From Bacteroidales bacterium (lineage in GTDB: Bacteria; Bacteroidota; Bacteroidia; Bacteroidales; UBA3663), in NCBI GenBank assembly GCA_045628525.1, contig JAZQPJ010000034.1, positions 4,061-68,060 of the forward strand: a DNA stretch of 64,000 bases, read 5' to 3'. Under the pieces are notes generated by a model. It was not told the DNA's origin. It worked only from the letters and a program-made list of their open reading frames with translations, and ran no database searches. Positions 4,500 through 54,090 of the stretch are shown piece by piece (positions within the stretch are counted from its first letter, which is position 1; each line of letters starts with the position of its first letter). Position numbers and translations under genes: made by a program.

Positions 4500-4527
4500 T
4501 TGCTCAAAGTGGTACATCTTTTTTATT

Positions 4528-4565
4528 AGGCCCTGCCTCCCAAGAACATCCAGGAGGCAGGGCCT
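4528..4565. terminator. Convergent-gene hairpin (13-bp perfect stem AGGCCCTGCCTCC/GGAGGCAGGGCCT)
   Basis: Lies between the yafQ stop and the nptA stop. There is no canonical U-tract on either side. Confidence 0.5.
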
Positions 4566-4570
4566 TAATA

Positions 4571-6253
4571 TTACTTGTTCACAGCAGCTTCTGCCTGCAC
4601 CACATTGATCGCATAGTCGCCTATCTTCTCGCATTCGGCAATGAAGTCGTTGAAGAAGGCGCCGAGGCGGTAGCTGTACTTGCCCTCGTTCACGGCGATG
4701 AGGTTCTCCTCGCGGCTGATGGTGCGCAGGGAGTTGATCTCGTTTTCTGCCTCGATGTTGTCGCGCAGATTGATTACCACGTGTTCAGGGTCGGTGATCA
4801 CCTGACGCATCTCATGCAGGGCGCGCTCGGTGAGGTCGAGCATCTGGGTCATCTGCATCTTCTGGTAGTCGGTGAAGTCGCTCGGCTCATTCTCACGCTT
4901 GCGCTGCAGGGTACGGCCGAGGTGGAACATCGAGTCTCCGATCGACTCCAGCTCGTCCACCTGTCGCAGCATCTGGGCGATGTGGTTCTTCGAGTAAGCC
5001 GAGAGCCTGCCCTCCGACACCTTGCGCAGGTAGCCGGCAATCTCCACCTCCATGTTGTCGGTGATCTGCTCGTAGTGTTCCAGTCGCTTGTATTCCTCGG
5101 CAAAGTCGCTCTCCTTCTTGGCCGAAAGGGCGCGGTTCACCATGTCGAGCATCTTCTGGCAACGCTCGGCCATGACACCCACCTCGTTGCGTGCCTGCAG
5201 GATGGAGAGCTCGGCCGTAGAGAGCAAGCCGCCGCTGATGTAGCGCAGACGTGTCTCCTCCTGCGTCTCCTTCTGAGGCAGCACGCGGCACACCAGCTGC
5301 TCAATCTGCTTGACGAAGCCAATCAATAACAAGGTGTTGAATACGTTGAATGCCGTGTGGAAGGCCGAGAGCTTGAAGAGGTCGTTGTTGCCAGCGCCCA
5401 TCACATGCTCCACGAACCATGACACGCCGTTGCAGAACGGATAGAACATCAGGAGCACCACCACCACGCCGAACACATTGAAGAACATGTGCGCGAGTGC
5501 CGCGCGTCGTGCCTGCGTGTTGGCGGTCAGGGAGGCGATGAATGCCGTGATCGTCGTACCGATGTTCTGACCCATGGCCAAAGCCGCTGCCTGCTCAAGG
5601 CCGAAGCCGGGGATCTGCATGTCGAACAGCATCAACGTGATGGCCATCGTGGCGGCCGATGCCTGAACGAGCATGGTAACCAATGCACCCACTACCACGA
5701 AAAGCAAGATTGTGAGGAAACCGCCATCGGCCACGCCTGCCAGCATCTGTGCCACCAGTTCGCCGATGTTCAGATCGGTGGCCGATTGCTGCAGGAAACT
5801 CAAGCCCATGAACAGGAACGAGAAGCCGAAGATGAACTCGCCGATCGACTTGCGATGCGAATTGCTGCTGAAGATGAGCGGAATGCCAAAGGCAAGCAAC
5901 GGCAACGCCAGGGCGGCGATATTGACCTTGAAACCGACAGCCGAGATGATCCATGCCGTCACCGTGGTGCCCACATTGGCACCCATGATCACGCCGATGG
6001 CTTGTGCCAGCGTCATCAATCCGGCATTGACAAACGAAACGACCATCACCGTGGTGGCCGAAGAGGATTGGATCAAGGCGGTCACGGCAATGCCCGTGAG
6101 AACACCCATCACACGATTGCGCGTCATGGCAGCCAGGATGCTGCGCAGACGATCGCCAGCAAATTTCTCAAGACCCTCGCTCATCGTCTTCATGCCGAAG
6201 AGGAAGAGTGCCAGGGATCCGATCAGGGAGAGGAGATTCAGAATTGTATCCAT
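4571..6253 (-). CDS. Na+/phosphate cotransporter family protein (NptA/YjbB type) with a C-terminal PhoU-like helical domain
   Basis: Duplicated Na_Pi_cotrans motifs (QSSSATTVMVVSF, GANVGTTVTAW; GQNIGTTITAF) and a long helical C-terminal half. Confidence 0.9.
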   Translation of the reverse strand: MDTILNLLSLIGSLALFLFGMKTMSEGLEKFAGDRLRSILAAMTRNRVMGVLTGIAVTALIQSSSATTVMVVSFVNAGLMTLAQAIGVIMGANVGTTVTAWIISAVGFKVNIAALALPLLAFGIPLIFSSNSHRKSIGEFIFGFSFLFMGLSFLQQSATDLNIGELVAQMLAGVADGGFLTILLFVVVGALVTMLVQASAATMAITLMLFDMQIPGFGLEQAAALAMGQNIGTTITAFIASLTANTQARRAALAHMFFNVFGVVVVLLMFYPFCNGVSWFVEHVMGAGNNDLFKLSAFHTAFNVFNTLLLIGFVKQIEQLVCRVLPQKETQEETRLRYISGGLLSTAELSILQARNEVGVMAERCQKMLDMVNRALSAKKESDFAEEYKRLEHYEQITDNMEVEIAGYLRKVSEGRLSAYSKNHIAQMLRQVDELESIGDSMFHLGRTLQRKRENEPSDFTDYQKMQMTQMLDLTERALHEMRQVITDPEHVVINLRDNIEAENEINSLRTISREENLIAVNEGKYSYRLGAFFNDFIAECEKIGDYAINVVQAEAAVNK

Positions 6254-6255
6254 AT

Positions 6256-6302
6256 TTTCAAATTACAGATTACAGATTTCAGATTACGAATTACAAATTA
6301 CG
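6256..6302. repeat. Heptamer tandem repeat (GTAATYT/GAAATCT x6-7 on the gene strand) filling the 5' leader of nptA
   Basis: The gene strand reads CGTAATTTGTAATTCGTAATCTGAAATCTGTAATCTGTAATTTGAAAAT-ATG. The 18-mer at 6256-6273 is identical to 57896-57913. Confidence 0.85.
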
Positions 6303-6314
6303 TTATTGACGCTG

Positions 6315-6322
6315 CAAAGATA
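6315..6322 (-). promoter_or_regulatory. -7 promoter box (TATCTTTG) for nptA
   Basis: Matches TAnnTTTG, which places the heptamer repeats in the transcribed leader. Confidence 0.5.
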
Positions 6323-6424
6323 TTACAACAATGTTACAATTTTATGACAAATGCTAAAAAAATGCGCAAATACCCTATTATTAGATCTTATAGTGGTCGT
6401 TTTTGTCTGTCCTCCTCAAAAAAA

Positions 6425-6552
6425 AGTTGAATGGATTAGACGTTAACTTCAGCCCTAGTTGAATGCTTTTAGGCATAACTCCGACAAGAGTTGAATGATT
6501 ATCTCTTAACTCCAAAACCTATTGAGTTCAGCCTTGTCTGGCCTGTTCAACT
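6425..6552. repeat. Three direct repeats in exact 32-bp register (AGTTGAATG-N9/10-TAACTYC) plus a degenerate fourth unit
   Basis: Units start at 6425, 6457 and 6489. The fourth (6521) ends in GTTCAACT, an inverted copy of the AGTTGAA core. Confidence 0.7.
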
Positions 6553-6846
6553 AAATCCAGAGTTTGTTGTTGCGTGGAGGGGGAGAGTATGAAACGATAT
6601 CTGTGAAATGATATGGATAGTATTGGTTTGATATAGTTTATATTTCATGCGGGCGTTTTTAGGTGTTTTGTTTGGGATTTGTCGTGACGACACGTCCCTT
6701 TTTCAATTTCATAATGTCTTGCGTTCTGGATAGATTTGACGATTACAAATGTGAAGAAATGCAATGTTTCTACTTGTTTAGGATGTACAAACCCAAATAT
6801 TTTTATGATTTATTTGATTTTATTTGTAACCGCAAATTATTTTGCG

Positions 6847-6854
6847 TATATTTG
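6847..6854 (+). promoter_or_regulatory. -7 promoter box (TATATTTG) for the DUF3791/DUF3990 module
   Basis: Matches TAnnTTTG about 40 nt upstream of ATG 6896. Confidence 0.45.
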
Positions 6855-6895
6855 CACCGTGATAATGTCGAATCATTAGATTAGTGTGAAGTAAT

Positions 6896-7114
6896 ATGTC
6901 AAAGCAAGAACAAGATAAGTCATATTTCGTTGCTTTCTGCATTGAGCAGTATAAGGCAGCAAAGGGAATGGACGGTGCAGACGTGGCGCAGCTGTTCTTC
7001 CAAAAAGGCGTGGCATCGTACCTCGCTGATAACTTTGATGTGCTTCATACTCAAAGCCGACAGTGGCTTATGGAGGAGATCGATGAATATCTGGAACAAA
7101 ACGAAGAGAAGTAA
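6896..7114 (+). CDS. DUF3791-family small helical protein
   Basis: 72 aa with the family-typical FVAFCIEQYK...YLADNFDVLHTQ. Its stop lies 1 nt before the next start. Confidence 0.75.
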   Translation: MSKQEQDKSYFVAFCIEQYKAAKGMDGADVAQLFFQKGVASYLADNFDVLHTQSRQWLMEEIDEYLEQNEEK

Positions 7115-7115
7115 A

Positions 7116-14874: not shown

Positions 14875-15160
14875 TGCAATAGTCCGACTTGGATCTGAGT
14901 CGGACTATTGCAGATCTGCAAAAGCATGTCGCAAGACAGAATATGTAATTGTAAATCTGCAGCAGTCCGACCTGGATCCAAGTCGGACTGCTGCGGCTCT
15001 TCAATAGTCCGACTTGATACCGTGTCGGACTGTCGCGCGTTTGCAATAGTCCGACTTGGTACCGTGTCGGACTGTCGCACGTTTGCAATAGTCCGACTTG
15101 GGTTCAGGTCGGACTGTCGCGCGTTTGCATTAGTCCGACTTGGGTTCAGGTCGGACTTTT
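14875..15160. repeat. Array of six palindromic units (AGTCCGAC-N10-GTCGGACT); the last four are in exact 42-bp register
   Basis: Left half-sites at 14881, 14964, 15006, 15048, 15090 and 15132. A conserved 16-bp linker GTCGCRCGTTTGCAAT separates units; the first two stems extend to 13-14 bp. Confidence 0.9.
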
Positions 15161-15255
15161 GTAAAACTTAAGTGCATTTAAACCTTCTAATACGATCATC
15201 GTCCTAAAGACAAAGAACGAAACTTGTATTATTAACACTTTAATACCTTAGAATT

Positions 15256-16047
15256 ATGAAGAAGATGTTCATGACCATGATGCTCGTCATCATCGCAGCC
15301 GCACAGGTATTCGCAATGTCAAACAGCAGCATCCGCCAGCACGCCCGTTTCCTGAGCGACCGCATGGCTTACGAGCTCGACCTGACTCCGTATCAGTACG
15401 ACGACGTGTATGAGATCAACTACGACTTCATCTACAGCATCGATCGCTATATGGACGATGTAGTTTATGGCTACCACGATGCCATCGAGCGCTACTATCG
15501 CTTGCTTGACTATCGCAACGAGGATCTGCGCTTCGTACTCAATGCGCGCCAGTATGCCAAGATGCTGACCCGCGACTACTTCTATCGTCCGGTGTATAGC
15601 AATGGCCGGAGCTGGTACTTCCGCATCTATACGATCTACAGCAACCGTAACTTCTTCTATTACGATGCACCAACCGTGTATAAGAGCTATCGCGGCGGTC
15701 ACTCGCAGGGCAGCTACAACCACAACTACTACAACCAGCGCCATCATCATGACAGCTACGGCCAGCAGTCGGCCATCCACGGCTCAAGCAGCTACCAGGA
15801 GCATGGTCGCAACGACTTCGGCGTAAACCGTCGCGAGCGTGGCAACAAGCACCAGAACGAGATCAACAACTACAACAACCACAACCAGCACAACCGCACC
15901 CAGGATCCTCGCTACCAGGATAATAGCGGCAACCACAATTCGCCACAGATCAATAACCGTGGGCAGCAGGGTGGCCAGGGCAAACCGCAGGACAGCAAGC
16001 AGGGCAATAGCCAGCAGGGCGGCGGTGCCAAGTCGGGAAGAAGATGA
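15256..16047 (+). CDS. Secreted protein with a conserved Tyr-rich N-terminal domain and a His/Asn/Gln/Gly-rich tail (paralog of 31673-32719)
   Basis: Signal peptide MKKMFMTMMLVIIAAAQVFA. About 125 aa align with the other copy (DRMAYEL.LTP.QY, MDDVVYGY, LDYRNEDLR). Confidence 0.8.
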   Translation: MKKMFMTMMLVIIAAAQVFAMSNSSIRQHARFLSDRMAYELDLTPYQYDDVYEINYDFIYSIDRYMDDVVYGYHDAIERYYRLLDYRNEDLRFVLNARQYAKMLTRDYFYRPVYSNGRSWYFRIYTIYSNRNFFYYDAPTVYKSYRGGHSQGSYNHNYYNQRHHHDSYGQQSAIHGSSSYQEHGRNDFGVNRRERGNKHQNEINNYNNHNQHNRTQDPRYQDNSGNHNSPQINNRGQQGGQGKPQDSKQGNSQQGGGAKSGRR

Positions 16048-16093
16048 GGGATTGAGGTGCGAACGCCTCAACACGATGGCTGAAAAATAAGAT

Positions 16094-16126
16094 GCCCCCT
16101 CGCTACAAATGGTGTGGCGAGGGGGC
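16094..16126. terminator. Bidirectional hairpin terminator (GCCCCCTCGC/GCGAGGGGGC)
   Basis: A 10-bp GC-rich perfect stem between convergent genes. Confidence 0.6.
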
Positions 16127-16127
16127 G

Positions 16128-16160
16128 TTGTCATGATTGTCAATTGTCATGATTGTCATT
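16128..16160. repeat. 16-bp tandem repeat GTCATGATTGTCAATT x2 (ATTGTCA sub-repeat)
   Basis: Direct reading; it lies just downstream of the SDR gene stop. Confidence 0.8.
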
Positions 16161-16194
16161 AAGCATTTGCCATTTAGCAGTTGCGCTCATGCAA

Positions 16195-17004
16195 TTACTT
16201 AGGCTGCTTGCCGATGTAGGCGAGGATGCCGCCATCGACGTAGAGCACATGGCCGTTGACAGCGTCAGAAGCCTTAGAGGCGAGGAAGACGGCTGGGCCA
16301 CCGAGCTCAGATGGGTCGAGCCAACGGCCGGCAGGGGTCTTAGCCACGATGAATGAGTCGAATGGGTGACGGCTACCATCTGGCTGACGCTCGCGGAGTG
16401 GTGCTGTCTGTGGGGTGGCGATGTAGCCAGGGCCGATGCCGTTGCACTGGATGTTGTACTCGCCATACTCTGAGCAGATGTTGCGGGTGAGCATCTTGAG
16501 GCCACCCTTGGCAGCTGCATAGGCGCTGACGGTTTCGCGGCCAAGCTCAGACATCATAGAGCAGATGTTGATGATCTTGCCTTCGCGACGCTCCATCATC
16601 TCGGGGAGCACGGCGCTGGCGCAGATGTATGGGGCCACGAGGTCGATGTCGATGACCTGCTGGAACTCGGCGCGCTTCATCTCGTGCATTGGGATGCGCT
16701 TGATGATGCCGGCGTTGTTGACGAGGATGTCGATCTGGCCGACCTCCTGGTGAACCTTCTCGACCAGGGCCTTGACGCCCTCTTCGTCGGTCACGTCGCA
16801 GACGTAGCCCTTGACGTTATCGATGCCTGCCTCCTTGTAGTTGGCAAGGCCGCGCTCGAGAGCTGCCTCGTTGATATCGTTGAAGATGATGGTCTTGGCA
16901 CCAGCGGCTACGAATGCCTTGGCGATGTTGAAACCGATGCCGTAAGATGCGCCGGTGATCCAGGCGTTCTTACCTTCGAGGGAGAATGCTTTCAATGATT
17001 CCAT
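16195..17004 (-). CDS. SDR-family oxidoreductase, gluconate 5-dehydrogenase / KduD-like
   Basis: TGASYGIG, NNAG and YAAAKGG motifs. The start was set at MESLKAF (ATG 17004). Confidence 0.85.
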   Translation of the reverse strand: MESLKAFSLEGKNAWITGASYGIGFNIAKAFVAAGAKTIIFNDINEAALERGLANYKEAGIDNVKGYVCDVTDEEGVKALVEKVHQEVGQIDILVNNAGIIKRIPMHEMKRAEFQQVIDIDLVAPYICASAVLPEMMERREGKIINICSMMSELGRETVSAYAAAKGGLKMLTRNICSEYGEYNIQCNGIGPGYIATPQTAPLRERQPDGSRHPFDSFIVAKTPAGRWLDPSELGGPAVFLASKASDAVNGHVLYVDGGILAYIGKQPK

Positions 17005-17038
17005 TTTGATAAGATTTATGATGTTAGTGGATGATTGT

Positions 17039-17079
17039 TTCGAGGTTTCGATAATTCGAGGTTTCGATGCTTCGAGGGG
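17039..17079. repeat. 16-bp tandem repeat TTCGAGGTTTCGATRM x2.5 in the LacI-SDR spacer
   Basis: Direct reading; related to the TTYGARG family. Confidence 0.8.
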
Positions 17080-17083
17080 AAAC

Positions 17084-18109
17084 TCAGATGGCACTTTCGC
17101 GCAGGATCAGATCGTGGTTGACGATGAGGTGCGCCGGGTGCTGCGTCTCGTCCTCGATTTCGCCGAGGCGGCTGAGCAGGAGGGTGGCTGCCATCTCGCC
17201 GATGCGCTGCTGATGCAGGTCGAACGAGGTGAGGGGTGTGGACAGATAATTGTCGAAGGGCTCGTTGGCCACGCCGATGATGGCGATGTCCCGGGGCACG
17301 TTGAGGCCCTTGCGGCGGAAGAGGTCGATGGCGGTGATGGCCGGGAAGTCGCCGGCCGAGAAGATGGCATCGGGACGATCCTGCATGGTGAGGATGCTCT
17401 GTGCGGCTTCGGTTCCTGCCTCGATGGTGATGGTGTTGCTGAACAGCCACTCGGGGCGGCATTCAAGGTCGAGATCTGCAAGCGCCTTGCAGTAGCCGTT
17501 GTAGCGGTCGGCATACGCCTTCTGGGCGAGAGGGCCGGCGAAGTGTCCGATCTTGCGGCATCCAAGCTTGTAGAGTTGCTGCACGGCATCGTAGCCTATC
17601 TGGAAGTTGTCGTTGGTCACCGAATCGGTGTCCTGCTGGGTGGCAGGCAGACGGTCGAAATAGACGAGCGGAATCTTGTGCTGGGCAAGGAGCGTCTCGT
17701 AGATGGGGTTCTGTGTCCTGGCCGAGAGTGAGAGGGCGATGCCATCGACCTTCTTCGAGATAAGGGCCTTGATGGCGTTTTCCTCCTGCTCCTGGCTCTC
17801 GTTGCTGGCAGCGATGATGACCTGGTAGCCGTACTTGTCGGCCATCTTCTGGAACGAACTGATGATGGTGGCAAAGAAGTTGCGGTCGATACGAGGCACC
17901 ACGATGCCGAGGACATTGCCTTTGCCCGTGCGCAGGTGGTGAGCTACAGGGTCGGGGATGTAATTGAGTTCCTTGGCCAGCTTCTGCACGGCTTGTCGCA
18001 TCTTGAGGCTGATGCGTGGATTGTTCTGCAGGGCGCGTGACACGGTCGAGGCCGTGGTGTGAAGCTGCTGCGCCAGATCGTAGATGGTCACTTTGCCATT
18101 CTCGCTCAT
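17084..18109 (-). CDS. LacI-family transcriptional regulator
   Basis: N-terminal HTH VTIYDLAQQLHTTASTVSRALQN plus a periplasmic-binding-protein-like sugar-binding core. Confidence 0.9.
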   Translation of the reverse strand: MSENGKVTIYDLAQQLHTTASTVSRALQNNPRISLKMRQAVQKLAKELNYIPDPVAHHLRTGKGNVLGIVVPRIDRNFFATIISSFQKMADKYGYQVIIAASNESQEQEENAIKALISKKVDGIALSLSARTQNPIYETLLAQHKIPLVYFDRLPATQQDTDSVTNDNFQIGYDAVQQLYKLGCRKIGHFAGPLAQKAYADRYNGYCKALADLDLECRPEWLFSNTITIEAGTEAAQSILTMQDRPDAIFSAGDFPAITAIDLFRRKGLNVPRDIAIIGVANEPFDNYLSTPLTSFDLHQQRIGEMAATLLLSRLGEIEDETQHPAHLIVNHDLILRESAI

Positions 18110-39737: not shown

Positions 39738-39975
39738 GTTCTTCGATTCGAGACGTCGAAAAGCATGTCCGGAATCTTGGCGAAGGAATTCGAGTTGTCG
39801 AATAGTTTGTCCGGACCTTGTGACAAGGAATTCGAGCCGTCGAAAAGGCTGTCTGGATTCTTGGACAAGGAATTCGAGCCGTCGAAGAGCCTATCCGAAA
39901 CCTCAGACAAAGATTTCGAGCCGTCGAAAAGCATGTCATAGAACTCTGGCAAAGATTTCGAGACGTCGAACTCTA
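39738..39975. repeat. Tandem array of about 5.6 units in exact 42-bp register (ATTCGAGCCGTCGAAAAGSMTGTCYGGAWYCTTGGMCAAGGA)
   Basis: TTCGAG anchors at 39747, 39789, 39831, 39873, 39915 and 39957. Each unit carries TTCGA-N4-TCGAA and CCTTG/CAAGG mini-palindromes. Confidence 0.9.
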
Positions 39976-39977
39976 TT

Positions 39978-41684
39978 TTATCGTTCTTCAGATGCTGTTA
40001 CTACATTGATGATGTAGTCACCGATCTTTTCGCATTCATTGATGAGCATCATGAAAAACGTACTTTGCTGATATTGCACCTCGTTGCGGTCAAATTGATC
40101 CAATACGGAGTTACGATATTGATTGCGGAAGTTGTTGATCTCGTCCTCGATGTTGAATGCTTTGTTCAGAGCGCTTGACGTCACTTCGTCCATGTCCATC
40201 AGCTTGAGCATGTGCTGCAAGGCATCGTCGGTGAGAGCGAACATCTTGTTTACATTCGTGTTGAGCTCAGGACTGAAGCGTACCCGTTGCTCGCTCTTGC
40301 TGTACAAGGTGGCAGACAGGTGATAGATGGAATCGGCAATGGATTCAAGTTCATCGACGATCTTGTACAGATTGCGACACAACTGCTCACCTTGCCCAGA
40401 CAGCGATTTAGGTGAGATCTTGTTGAGGAAGTCCGCAATTTCCATCTCTGCCCGATCGCTTTCCTGCTCCATCGTCCGCACTTGGTCATCGATCTGCAAC
40501 TGACGCTCAGAACCAAGCGGTTCGGACAACATCTCACGAACAAGCGAGAACATGATATAGACATTCTCACCATATCTTGTCGCTTCTTTCTGCACTTGAG
40601 CCAAAGCCATTTCGCTTGATGAAATGATGCCAGAGGTGATGAATTGCAGCTTGAATGACTGTTCGGAGTCGGGTTCTGTCTCTGGCGTGTTCCTGGAAAC
40701 AAGGCGTACAAACTGATGACGCAAAGGCAACAACAAGAGCATCGTCACGACATTGAAAGCTGTATGGAAAAGGGCCAGACCGGCTGGCATGTTTTCCTGA
40801 AGGTTCGGATTGCCTAAGCCGATGCTTTCGCAGCAATAGGCAATCGTGGATTCTCCGTCTGCCAGTTTTCCATTGAAAATAAAATACAAGCCAAGCATCA
40901 GCAGGAGCACCCAAAGCATTCCAATAAAATTAAATAGGAAATGTAACAGGGCTGCACGTCGTGCCATGGCATTGGCCTTTCGTGCTGCAATCAATGGAGG
41001 TATGCAAGTGCCGATATTGGCCAATACGATGAGTGCGCAGCCAAGATCGAACGATATCCATTCAGACACACACAGCAGTAGGGCGATGAGGAAGGTGATG
41101 GTTGACGAACGGAACAGAACGGTTAGCAGCAATCCGCTCAGCAAGACAACTGATACCGACAATACATACAGATATCCCTCTCCATCGAGCCCCTGGGGCA
41201 ACCACGTACCATCCATCTGGTGGAATGAAACCTGCATGAAGTGGATGCTAATGACCAGAAGTGCTATGCCAATGATCAGTTCACCCCATGAGACAGACGA
41301 TCCCTTGCGGAATCCGAAGAGCGGAATCGTTATGGCAACCAGCGGAAAAGCCCAGAGATAAGCGTCGAAATTGAAGCACAGGAGCGCAATGAGCCAGGCG
41401 GTGATGGTTGTGCCGATGTTGGCACCCATGATGACAGATGCTGATTGCGAAAGCGTGATCAATCCGGCGTTGGTGAACGAAACCGCCATCATGGTTACAG
41501 CAGTTGATGACTGAACCAGAGCGGTGACACCAAGGCCGGTGAACATACCTGTCAGGGCATTGCCTGTCATGGCTGATTGCGCATGACGCAGCACATCACC
41601 CGCAATCTTTTGCAGATTGTCGCTGATGAGCTGCATGGCAAACAGGAAGAGGCCAATGGAGCCGATGAGGGTCAGTAGTGTCAT
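39978..41684 (-). CDS. Na+/phosphate cotransporter family protein (second copy) with a C-terminal PhoU-like domain
   Basis: QSSTAVTMMAVSF and GANIGTTITAW motifs, and the same architecture as 4571-6253. Confidence 0.9.
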   Translation of the reverse strand: MTLLTLIGSIGLFLFAMQLISDNLQKIAGDVLRHAQSAMTGNALTGMFTGLGVTALVQSSTAVTMMAVSFTNAGLITLSQSASVIMGANIGTTITAWLIALLCFNFDAYLWAFPLVAITIPLFGFRKGSSVSWGELIIGIALLVISIHFMQVSFHQMDGTWLPQGLDGEGYLYVLSVSVVLLSGLLLTVLFRSSTITFLIALLLCVSEWISFDLGCALIVLANIGTCIPPLIAARKANAMARRAALLHFLFNFIGMLWVLLLMLGLYFIFNGKLADGESTIAYCCESIGLGNPNLQENMPAGLALFHTAFNVVTMLLLLPLRHQFVRLVSRNTPETEPDSEQSFKLQFITSGIISSSEMALAQVQKEATRYGENVYIMFSLVREMLSEPLGSERQLQIDDQVRTMEQESDRAEMEIADFLNKISPKSLSGQGEQLCRNLYKIVDELESIADSIYHLSATLYSKSEQRVRFSPELNTNVNKMFALTDDALQHMLKLMDMDEVTSSALNKAFNIEDEINNFRNQYRNSVLDQFDRNEVQYQQSTFFMMLINECEKIGDYIINVVTASEER

Positions 41685-53652: not shown

Positions 53653-54090
53653 AGCGGTGGCATGTCGAAAGAGATGGAAAAAGCGCTGAAAATGTGCTGA
53701 AAGTTCGCAAATCCATTAGGAATGCCTCTGCAAGTGTGCGGAAGGGCGGAAAATGATTTTTTGCGGCTCAGCAGATCTGCGGAGGGTTTCCAAAAGTTTT
53801 TTTTGCGGCTCCGCACGTTTGCGAAAGCTCTACAAAAAGTTTTTCTGTGACTCTGCAAATCTGCGGAAGCTCTCCAAAAGTTTTTCCAAGGCTCAGCAAA
53901 CTGTCGGAGCTCAGAAAATGTTTTAGCGAAGGTTTTGCAGGTTTGCAGAGGCATTCCTAAAGATTTTGTGTCCGCTCCGCATGTTTGCATCACCTTTTCG
54001 ATGCGATTTGCAGATTCAGTGCGAGCTCGCATCACCTTTTCGATGCGATTTGCAGATTCAATGCAAGTTCGCGTCACTTTTCCTGATGCT
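53653..54090. repeat. Degenerate tandem array of about 10 units holding a 40-42-bp register; the last 2.5 units are near-identical (GCATCACCTTTTCGATGCGATTTGCAGATTCARTGCRAGYTC)
   Basis: Unit anchors at 53695, 53737, 53778, 53820, 53862, 53904, 53944 and 53986/53987, then 54029 and 54071. The final unit runs into the 3' end of the DUF2851 gene. Confidence 0.8.

Follow-up and report, generated by a model that had tools for sequence, protein, structure and literature searches.

Six palindromes in 42-bp phase downstream of a PiT gene in a Bacteroidales genome probably form a local cluster of a lineage-specific, REP/BIME-like repeat family

The stretch of DNA analyzed here, 64,000 nucleotides from a Bacteroidales bacterium (contig JAZQPJ010000034.1, positions 4,061 to 68,060; hereafter the window), carries an array of six long palindromes between the gene for a PiT inorganic phosphate transporter and the next gene on the same strand. 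This raises the question of whether the array belongs to the phosphate locus in which it stands or to a repeat family of wider distribution. We consider it probable that the array belongs, as a local cluster, to a lineage-specific family of repetitive extragenic palindromes (REPs), similar to REPs and to bacterial interspersed mosaic elements (BIMEs).

Six exact matches to AGTCCGAC-N10-GTCGGACT were found on the + strand at 14881-15157, with starts at 14881, 14964, 15006, 15048, 15090 and 15132, as the first-pass annotation of this DNA had reported. Shuffles of the window gave a chance expectation of 0.01 matches, with six matches in none of 100 shuffles, and the pattern was detected nowhere else in the 64 kb. 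The 8-mer AGTCCGAC occurs 14 times in the window (1.28 expected), 12 of these within the array; as it is not enriched outside the array, a DNA-uptake sequence was ruled out. A translated 14-aa repeat was also discarded for the array, because most frames contain stops and no open reading frame (ORF) is continuous with PiT. Tandem Repeats Finder detected a period of 42 bp with 4.6 copies at 14964-15157, and a repeat finder grouped the six units as a single family, spaced by 83, 42, 42, 42 and 42 bp. The 42-bp spacing previously given for the last four units was therefore exact, and the strict phase extends to a fifth unit, the one at 14964. The conserved 16-bp linker described in the same annotation, GTCGCRCGTTTGCAAT, was recovered three times (15032, 15074 and 15116), the copy at 15116 with one mismatch.

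As had also been described, the N10 between the half-sites is near-palindromic; the core palindrome measures 26 bp and, with 8 nt on each side, the full unit reaches 42 bp, which in unit 1 is a palindrome throughout. Units 1 and 2 are almost perfect 42-bp palindromes (pair counts in Table 1), with outer arms changed on both sides (GCAAT...ATTGC in unit 1, GCAGC...GCTGC in unit 2), and units 3-6 keep complementarity only in the core and the inner pairs. Units 3 and 4, and likewise units 5 and 6, are near-identical pairs. The 83-bp spacing between units 1 and 2 corresponds to 42 bp plus a degenerate filler of 41 bp, which may be a decayed unit in which a 1-bp deletion has moved the phase by one. 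After the end of the PiT stop codon (14848), the first core begins 32 nt further on and the full palindrome of unit 1 begins 24 nt further on, and 98 nt separate the last core from the next gene start (15256); the placement between the two genes thus stood, and the earlier distances of 27 bp and about 95 bp are replaced by these values.

Other classes of repeat were considered for the array. No clustered regularly interspaced short palindromic repeat (CRISPR) array was recognized: the units abut without unique spacers, the 16-bp linker is itself repeated, and the proteins to which this check was applied, those flanking the array, are not of Cas families. Regarding features of miniature inverted-repeat transposable elements, each unit consists solely of two inverted 21-nt arms, no duplication was seen by eye at the array ends, and no related insertion sequence (IS) element was seen in the window and related-locus DNA examined.

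The palindrome, hereafter type A, is not restricted to this locus. When 185,579 species, each represented by one genome, were scanned with the pattern AGTCCGACYTG-N7-GTCGGACT, 36 loci were returned, 30 of them on many different contigs of four Bacteroidales metagenome-assembled genomes (MAGs; Table 1); the other six were isolated hairpins in unrelated phyla, roughly as many as chance would produce. These four MAGs (JAZRVB, JAZQQU, JAZRXZ and JAZQQH) are close relatives of the organism of the window. The PiT of JAZQQU is 89% identical to that of the window, and that of a sister MAG, JAZRXO, is 94% identical. With a relaxed pattern, most loci of the four MAGs contained several units at exact multiples of 42 bp. 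In JGI metagenomes and IMG/VR, the type-A palindrome was matched only by single, unrelated hairpins that resemble terminators, and IMG/VR had no match to two further types described below, B and E; as far as these collections show, the type-A family appears to be confined to a narrow lineage. Within that lineage it is dispersed in intergenic DNA: nine arrays lie between convergent, eight between tandem and four between divergent genes, and none inside a credible gene, gene calls in the related loci being crude. This 3'-end bias resembles that of REPs. The neighbours are housekeeping genes such as those for a ComF-like phosphoribosyltransferase, an AraC-type regulator, a SpoU methylase and glutamate dehydrogenase.

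Many of the arrays lie at contig ends, and all true type-A matches fall in MAGs with JAZQ and JAZR prefixes and a common isolate-naming scheme, suggesting a single project, so that an assembly or library artefact had to be considered. The cores contain the 8-mers AAGTCGGA and AGATCGGA, with which common MGI and Illumina adapters begin. Such 8-mers are present in window unit 2 (14981-14988), which has the former only, and in units of L001, L005, L013, L033 and L036; the latter occurs in some units of related loci and in none of the window. However, the arrays are embedded between intact genes, none of which is interrupted, they are common to MAGs of different samples at orthologous sites with variation, they include palindrome types unrelated to any adapter, and 42-bp palindrome arrays occur in the assemblies of other projects, made with other assemblers; contig ends, moreover, are where real dispersed repeats are expected. 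An artefact is hardly credible on these data, and it was rejected, the adapter likeness being judged a coincidence. As a separate point, the clipping of reads by adapter trimmers could impair the assembly of these repeats.

The first-pass annotation had also listed an attenuator among the candidate roles. A locus-specific attenuator or terminator stack would balance the output of PiT against that of the downstream protein, perhaps under Pho control, and it would agree with the position of the array between two same-strand genes and with the short T run after the last unit. It would also agree with CTGTCATTTATCTGCAAT at 14863-14880, just after PiT, which resembles the E. coli-type Pho box (CTGTCAT-N4-CTGTCAY), abuts unit 1 with an overlap of its outer arm, and is the single match in the window (0.05 expected); this pattern was picked after seeing the sequence, and its E. 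coli consensus may not suit Bacteroidales. However, no array follows PiT in any of four orthologous loci with PiT identities of 94, 94, 90 and 89%. All four have a different gene 3' of PiT from that of the window, and in three of them PiT is followed by an ordinary A8-stem-T8 terminator. Therefore, the six units were added to the window locus, and a conserved, PiT-specific regulatory role is excluded. Judged by this comparison of loci, the array is shown to be an addition to the PiT locus and not a conserved component of it. The palindrome stands, in addition, beside unrelated genes at about 30 other loci. These comparative data largely refute a phosphate-operon element, which we regard as very improbable.

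More distant relatives add two observations. Nothing was found after PiT in a relative with 83% PiT identity, and in L058 (PiT 79%) a single 42-bp palindrome, AAAGAAAATAGTCATCGACGAGCGTCGATGACTATTTTCCTT, lies after PiT between convergent genes at 12372-12413. It has A-like arms, AAAATAGTC...GACTATTTT (AATAGTC...GACTATT), with A and T runs at its flanks, and may be a terminator-like ancestor form. Ordinary terminators of relatives (in L037 at 9275 and 11613) are also palindromes of about 42 bp, and A and T runs flank some members of the family, such as CAAAAAATAGTCCGAC...GTCGGACTATTTTTGA in L007.

When the related loci were laid out in rows of 42 bp, type-A units were seen to sit in head-to-tail arrays of other 42-bp palindromes. 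In 31 arrays, with 171 distinct units between them, modules of types A, B, D, E, F, G and H (Table 1) abut without spacer; one phase is shared by all type-A matches of a locus, and at least seven palindrome types share arrays in a single 42-bp phase. The window array consists of type A only, and no 42-bp palindromes of other types were found in the window, where the scan gave the type-A array, a lone hairpin at 4526-4567 and a few weak matches with 14-15 of 21 pairs. The basic module is a full-length palindrome of 42 bp with arms of 16-19 nt and a centre that is often GTAC or GATC (GGTACC, GGATCC), and many unit ends resemble T(C/G)(A/C)(A/T)GG...CC(A/T)(G/T)(C/G)A. When all units are taken together, Watson-Crick pairing reaches 79-95% at pairs 7/36 to 16/27, each of which shows 3-4 pair types, where column composition predicts 35-62%, and the central pair 21/22 is 61% Watson-Crick against 35% expected. 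The conserved property is palindromy of fixed length and no particular sequence. A likeness of the type H/G/C centres (CGTACG) to the Mpi invertase site of B. fragilis was considered and found too partial.

The types are also ordered. The succession H-G-F-E-A(-D) recurs at loci with unrelated flanks (L028, L031 and L011/L012, and inverted in L022), with individual units in these composites carrying flipped loops (the F loop in L028 versus L031), which suggests block-wise copying of multi-module composites about 250-300 bp long. Arrays of 42-bp palindromes were found as well in relatives from other projects, assembled with other programs (L057 and L038; Table 1), so that the 42-bp habit is not confined to one study. 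Searches of the literature by sequence and by topic gave no description of these repeats; as far as found, a fixed 42-bp module common to unrelated palindrome types is unusual and undescribed in the searchable literature.

Evidence for turnover came from pairs of close relatives. In L004 and L033, whose flanking proteins are 98% identical, an array occupies the matching site in both species, and what distinguishes the two arrays is an 84-bp block, one additional inverted A unit, other indels and many substitutions inside hairpins. Arrays of close relatives are thereby shown to differ by blocks of modules, cleanly by 84 bp in this best-resolved case. Adjacent A units are head-to-tail in 35 of 41 cases, and identity outside the core is 0.66 within arrays versus 0.53 between arrays. 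This orientation bias and within-array likeness, together with the near-identity of window units 3/4 and 5/6, fit slippage or unequal exchange in steps of 42 bp. A palindrome unique to one locus and invariant between strains, as would be expected of an ordinary terminator duplicated by chance, is therefore not what was found: it is dispersed and varies between close relatives. The REP/BIME-like role listed among the candidates of the first-pass annotation agrees with the about 30 intergenic loci in relatives, with their variable copy number and with the missing array after orthologous PiT genes.

The fixed spacing invites comparison with arrays of protein-binding sites in double-strand DNA, in which each palindrome would be the site of a dimeric protein (ParB/SopB-like, nucleoid-associated or a recombinase). 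The model for this is sopC of plasmid F, a single locus beside sopAB with 12 units of 43 bp, each with a SopB-binding inverted repeat, and the tandem units of about 42-43 bp with one inverted repeat each are indeed common to both. A period of 42 bp is four helical turns and would put all sites on one helix face, all arrays keep strictly to the phase, the centre is itself palindromic, and variable positions hold their purine/pyrimidine identity without covariation. The type-A half-sites of 8 bp are invariant in 82 units while the spacer varies, which could suggest sequence-specific recognition, although this invariance is inflated because the core was the search query through which the units were found. 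On the other hand, at least seven unrelated types in shared arrays and a shared phase would demand as many proteins, and the arrays are scattered at gene 3' ends and vary among close relatives. No partition, recombinase or DNA-binding gene recurs beside them, and no partition (ParA/ParB-type), recombinase, transposase or cas genes were present among the scanned array neighbours. The resemblance to sopC proposed earlier consequently does not extend beyond the unit layout, given the lack of par genes nearby, the many chromosomal loci, the mixture of several palindrome types and the rapid gain and loss of units, and a protein-binding array is unlikely.

Evidence on whether the palindromes matter at the RNA or the DNA level is mixed. 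A transcript-level role is hinted at by their place just past stop codons, by hairpin stability, by folding on the + strand, by an excess of G.U pairs in the sense strand and by the T run of the last unit. The whole intergenic RNA folds with z = -15.7, single-unit hairpins on the + strand range from -15.8 to -30.9 kcal/mol, and five of the six window units are more stable folded on this strand. In arrays with known direction of the upstream gene, non-Watson-Crick pairs in the sense strand comprise 83 G.U versus 44 A.C (16 versus 4 in the window array). Unit 6 alone is followed by a T run, TTTTGT, the first T of which lies inside the stem, and is weakly terminator-like.

These same features could be those of a multi-hairpin non-coding RNA or RNA-protein platform acting as a sponge, a scaffold or a set of RNase III sites that uncouple the cistrons. 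Very stable hairpins with up to 19 pairs, the sense-strand G.U excess and a hairpin-type order conserved at unrelated loci would all be in line with it. Against this stand the free variation of unit number and composition between loci and relatives, the flipping of individual units in place (the F loop again), the lack of compensatory covariation in type-A pairs, and several null results. Rfam 15 gave only sub-threshold chance matches to miRNA models in the window, Rfam had no match in 11 related loci, and a consensus scan of the array region, limited to sigma-70-type promoters, detected none. We regard a dedicated non-coding RNA as decidedly improbable.

The REP/BIME-like reading was then weighed against known systems. 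REP families elsewhere are found singly, as inverted dimers or in tandem clusters, and have a conserved, unpaired GTAG or CGTC tag at one end (PMC3733652). With the REPs and BIMEs of Enterobacteria and Pseudomonas, whose partners are RAYT (REP-associated tyrosine transposase, TnpA-REP) genes usually flanked by REPs, as described there and in PMC6006769, the present family shares short imperfect stem-loop palindromes of 20-40 bp that are extragenic with a 3'-end preference, dispersed loci (in the related genomes) in the form of singletons, inverted dimers and tandem clusters, lineage-specific sequence, a copy number variable between relatives, and clusters that are mosaics of several palindrome types, the last feature being seen here in the related genomes and not in the window. 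It differs in that all module types are fixed at 42 bp, linker-free and in a single phase, in palindromy that runs through the centre (GGTACC), in modest copy number and in an uncultured Bacteroidales host. Like neighbours are here mostly head-to-tail, whereas BIMEs are known to alternate in orientation. Within the same phylum, RAYT subclasses 2.4 and 2.6 of Bacteroidetes and Cyanobacteria are tied to 'double-foot' and 'atypical' REPs (PMC6006769). These share with the present modules the phylum, full symmetry (the 5' foot reverse-complemented at the 3' end) and scattered copies, but they are defined by a flanking tnpA-REP gene and a GT[AG]G foot, where the foot is A[TC]AG here and no such gene was seen; phase-locked multi-type arrays are not known from that work.

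Two further systems were compared. Bidirectional intrinsic terminators (A-tract, stem-loop, T-tract) likewise lie just past stop codons and between convergent genes, and some members of the family are flanked by A and T runs, but most units (5/6 in the window) have no T run, up to eight iterations occur, and none was called by the scan. The neisserial intergenic mosaic elements (NIMEs) consist of dRS3 palindromes (ATTCCC-N8-GGGAAT) flanking RS units of 50-150 bp, which are not palindromes themselves; they form intergenic mosaics and rearrangement hotspots, and dRS3 serves as an integration site for phages and IS elements. Intergenic mosaics with a small palindrome in arrays of differing unit types are thus common to both, whereas NIME units vary in length and are not palindromic and the modules here are 42-bp palindromes.

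Several observations weigh against assigning the array to a REP/BIME-like family or against a role for its hairpins. No GTAG or CGTC tag is present, the foot being ATAG or ACAG (type-A positions 7-10 are A-(T/C)-A-G, paired with C-T-(A/G)-T). A search for the HUH...Y motif of Y1 transposases and RAYTs in about 450 kb of window and locus DNA gave only two weak regular-expression candidates, neither with a Pfam match, no Y1_Tnp was found among the scanned proteins of window and loci, and clustering of all ORFs of the loci revealed no recurrent neighbour gene apart from ordinary orthologues; these searches covered samples (window and loci), not whole genomes, and are not evidence of absence. Copy number is modest, with one array in 64 kb and no other module types. 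A terminator scan of 12000-17500 gave no canonical terminator and did not call unit 6. The G.U excess could also reflect a C-to-T mutation bias linked to transcription or replication, and it depends on the crude gene calls of the loci. Finally, the variable type-A pairs 6/37 and 8/35 show no covariation, only purine-pyrimidine identity being kept; pair 17/26 is anti-correlated (C..A or T..G), marking unit polarity; and complementarity extends through the very centre (21/22), where a hairpin does not need it. Given the lack of covariation and the central complementarity, hairpin stability alone does not explain the sequence pattern.

A REP/BIME-like family would nevertheless account for the arrays as follows. 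Slipped-strand mispairing or unequal recombination among the 42-bp repeats would lengthen and shorten them, and single modules or multi-module composites would occasionally be seeded at new gene 3' ends, with a hairpin-recognising single-strand DNA transposase of the RAYT/Y1 kind as the obvious candidate agent. In the window, the array would be transcribed as the 3' untranslated region (UTR) of PiT, each module forming a hairpin of -16 to -31 kcal/mol. Such hairpins could stall 3'-to-5' exonucleases, the last unit (hairpin plus UUUUGU) may partly terminate transcription, and the array would take the place of the ordinary terminator present in relatives. If the array has any function, it is probably that of a 3'-UTR hairpin stack serving as an exonuclease barrier and a weak terminator.

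The uniform module length, ends and centre and the spacer-free mosaics suggest, in addition, dedicated machinery with a built-in 21/42-nt ruler. The arrays would then represent a hitherto undescribed, phase-locked superfamily of at least seven unrelated palindromes of exactly 42 bp (2 x 21), with ends T-S-M-W-G-G...C-C-W-K-S-A and a GTAC-type centre, generated or mobilised by such machinery. We put this forward tentatively, as a possible but less likely explanation; the candidates would be fold-back copying on a hairpin template and a single-strand DNA transposase of a new kind. If true, the machinery would differ from the classic RAYT/GTAG system and be new for Bacteroidales.

Features of the window and the related loci are collected in Table 1. 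The protein encoded downstream of the array belongs to no Pfam family, and the genes beyond it, on the - strand, encode an SDR and then a LacI-type regulator. Exact-protein look-ups with the PiT and the downstream protein of the window returned no record, hence no second copy of the locus for comparison.

Table 1. Coordinates and properties of the array, its neighbouring genes, the module types and the related loci.
Feature	Locus or genome	Coordinates	Strand	Properties
PiT / PHO4-family inorganic phosphate transporter	window	12578-14848	+	756 aa; ORF list; Pfam PF01384 E = 2.6e-26
Phosphate-selective porin, 5' of PiT	window	11408-12538	+	Pfam PF07396 E = 1e-11
Downstream gene	window	15256-16047	+	263-aa protein; hydrophobic signal-peptide-like N-terminus (by eye), H/N/Q/G-rich tail
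Unit 1, type A	window	14873-14914	+	TCTGCAATAGTCCGAC-TTGGATCTGA-GTCGGACTATTGCAGA; 19 Watson-Crick + 2 G.T pairs of 21; RNA hairpin -30.2 kcal/mol, z = -8.7 (+ strand)
41-bp filler between units 1 and 2	window	14915-14955	+	non-palindromic, 4/21 pairs
Unit 2, type A	window	14956-14997	+	18/21 Watson-Crick pairs; RNA hairpin -30.9 kcal/mol
Unit 3, type A	window	14998-15039	+	outer arms no longer complementary; RNA hairpin -15.8 kcal/mol
Unit 4, type A	window	15040-15081	+	near-copy of unit 3; centre GGTACC; RNA hairpin -20.1 kcal/mol
Unit 5, type A	window	15082-15123	+	inner pairs G.U wobbles on + strand; RNA hairpin -23.9 kcal/mol on + strand vs -19.5 on - strand
Unit 6, type A	window	15124-15165	+	loop identical to unit 5; short T run GGACTTTTGT after it on + strand; RNA hairpin -24.6 kcal/mol on + strand vs -14.3 on - strand
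Type A				core AGTCCGAC...GTCGGACT
Type B				CAGAGGGGCAAAA...TTTTGCCCCTCTG
Type F (includes C)				GAGTCAACAC...GTGTTGACTC, or TTTGACAC...GTGTCAAA
Type D				GGAATGGACGTC...GACGTCCATTCC
Type E				GGCATC-N5-CACGGTACCGTG-N5-GATGCC
Type G				AGCTGACATCGCGTACGCGATGTCAGCT
Type H				ATTTCAACGTTGCGTACGTAACGTTGAAAT
Type-A loci (strict pattern)	JAZRVB			18
Type-A loci (strict pattern)	JAZQQU			10
Type-A loci (strict pattern)	JAZRXZ			1
Type-A loci (strict pattern)	JAZQQH			1
Composite	L028	5966-6217		
Composite	L031	3601-3810		
Composite	L022	74-283		
Composite	L011	1545-1838		
Composite	L012	367-618		
42-bp array	L057 (ENA, contig NODE_...)	7616-7746		near-perfect units AAATTAACATCGCGTCCGCGATGTTAATTT, G/H-like
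42-bp array	L038 (ENA, contig k141_...)	1-142		only moderately palindromic units CTTGAAACCTTACAAACCGAACAGTTTATAACGTCTGGAGGC

Other arrays with a 42-bp period were detected in the window. An intergenic array at 39746-39970 (5.4 copies, consensus ATTCGAGCCGTCGAAAAGCATGTCCGGAATCTTGGACAAGGA) separates a Na/Pi cotransporter gene (39978-41684, - strand), 8 nt past whose stop it begins, from a thymidine kinase gene; its structure is weak (z about -3), several of its frames are open as 14-aa repeats, and nothing in related loci matches it. Two more, at 53757-53912 and 53987-54082, are located between a GH9 and a DUF2851 gene that converge; an 11-mer, CGCACGTTTGC, is common to them and the linker of the type-A array, and they contain motifs resembling GCAGATCTGC that are present too at 14908-14925. 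These three arrays were considered as members of the type-A family and left out (z about -2 to -6, unmatched in related loci); four intergenic 42-bp arrays in 64 kb are striking in themselves. The lone hairpin at 4526-4567, a terminator-like palindrome of 42 bp (TTAGGCCCTGCCTCC-N12-GGAGGCAGGGCCTTA), immediately follows the stop codon of a further Na/Pi cotransporter gene (4571-6253, - strand). The region 6000-12000 is low in GC (0.34-0.44 versus about 0.52 elsewhere in the window) and codes for a DUF3990 protein, an aspartyl-protease-like protein and a Schlafen/AlbA_2 HATPase_c_4 protein, the last with a 33-bp coding repeat at 10754-10876. The DUF3990 protein has a counterpart in L003 with 93% identity (about 85% for the DNA), whose gene lies about 500 bp from a type-A array.

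REP-type repeats influence how stable mRNAs are, where transcription ends, how genomes rearrange and how well they assemble, and it is chiefly in Proteobacteria that they are well studied. The family described here, modular and of unusually strict architecture, belongs to a gut-type lineage of Bacteroidales for which MAGs are the only source. If confirmed on complete genomes, this family would explain the frequent contig breaks in these MAGs, would supply strain-typing markers, since arrays of near-identical relatives differ by blocks of units, and would offer a tractable case for how a repeat length is fixed and how palindromic repeats spread without an obvious RAYT. The window array, in that event, should not be annotated as a phosphate-specific regulator.

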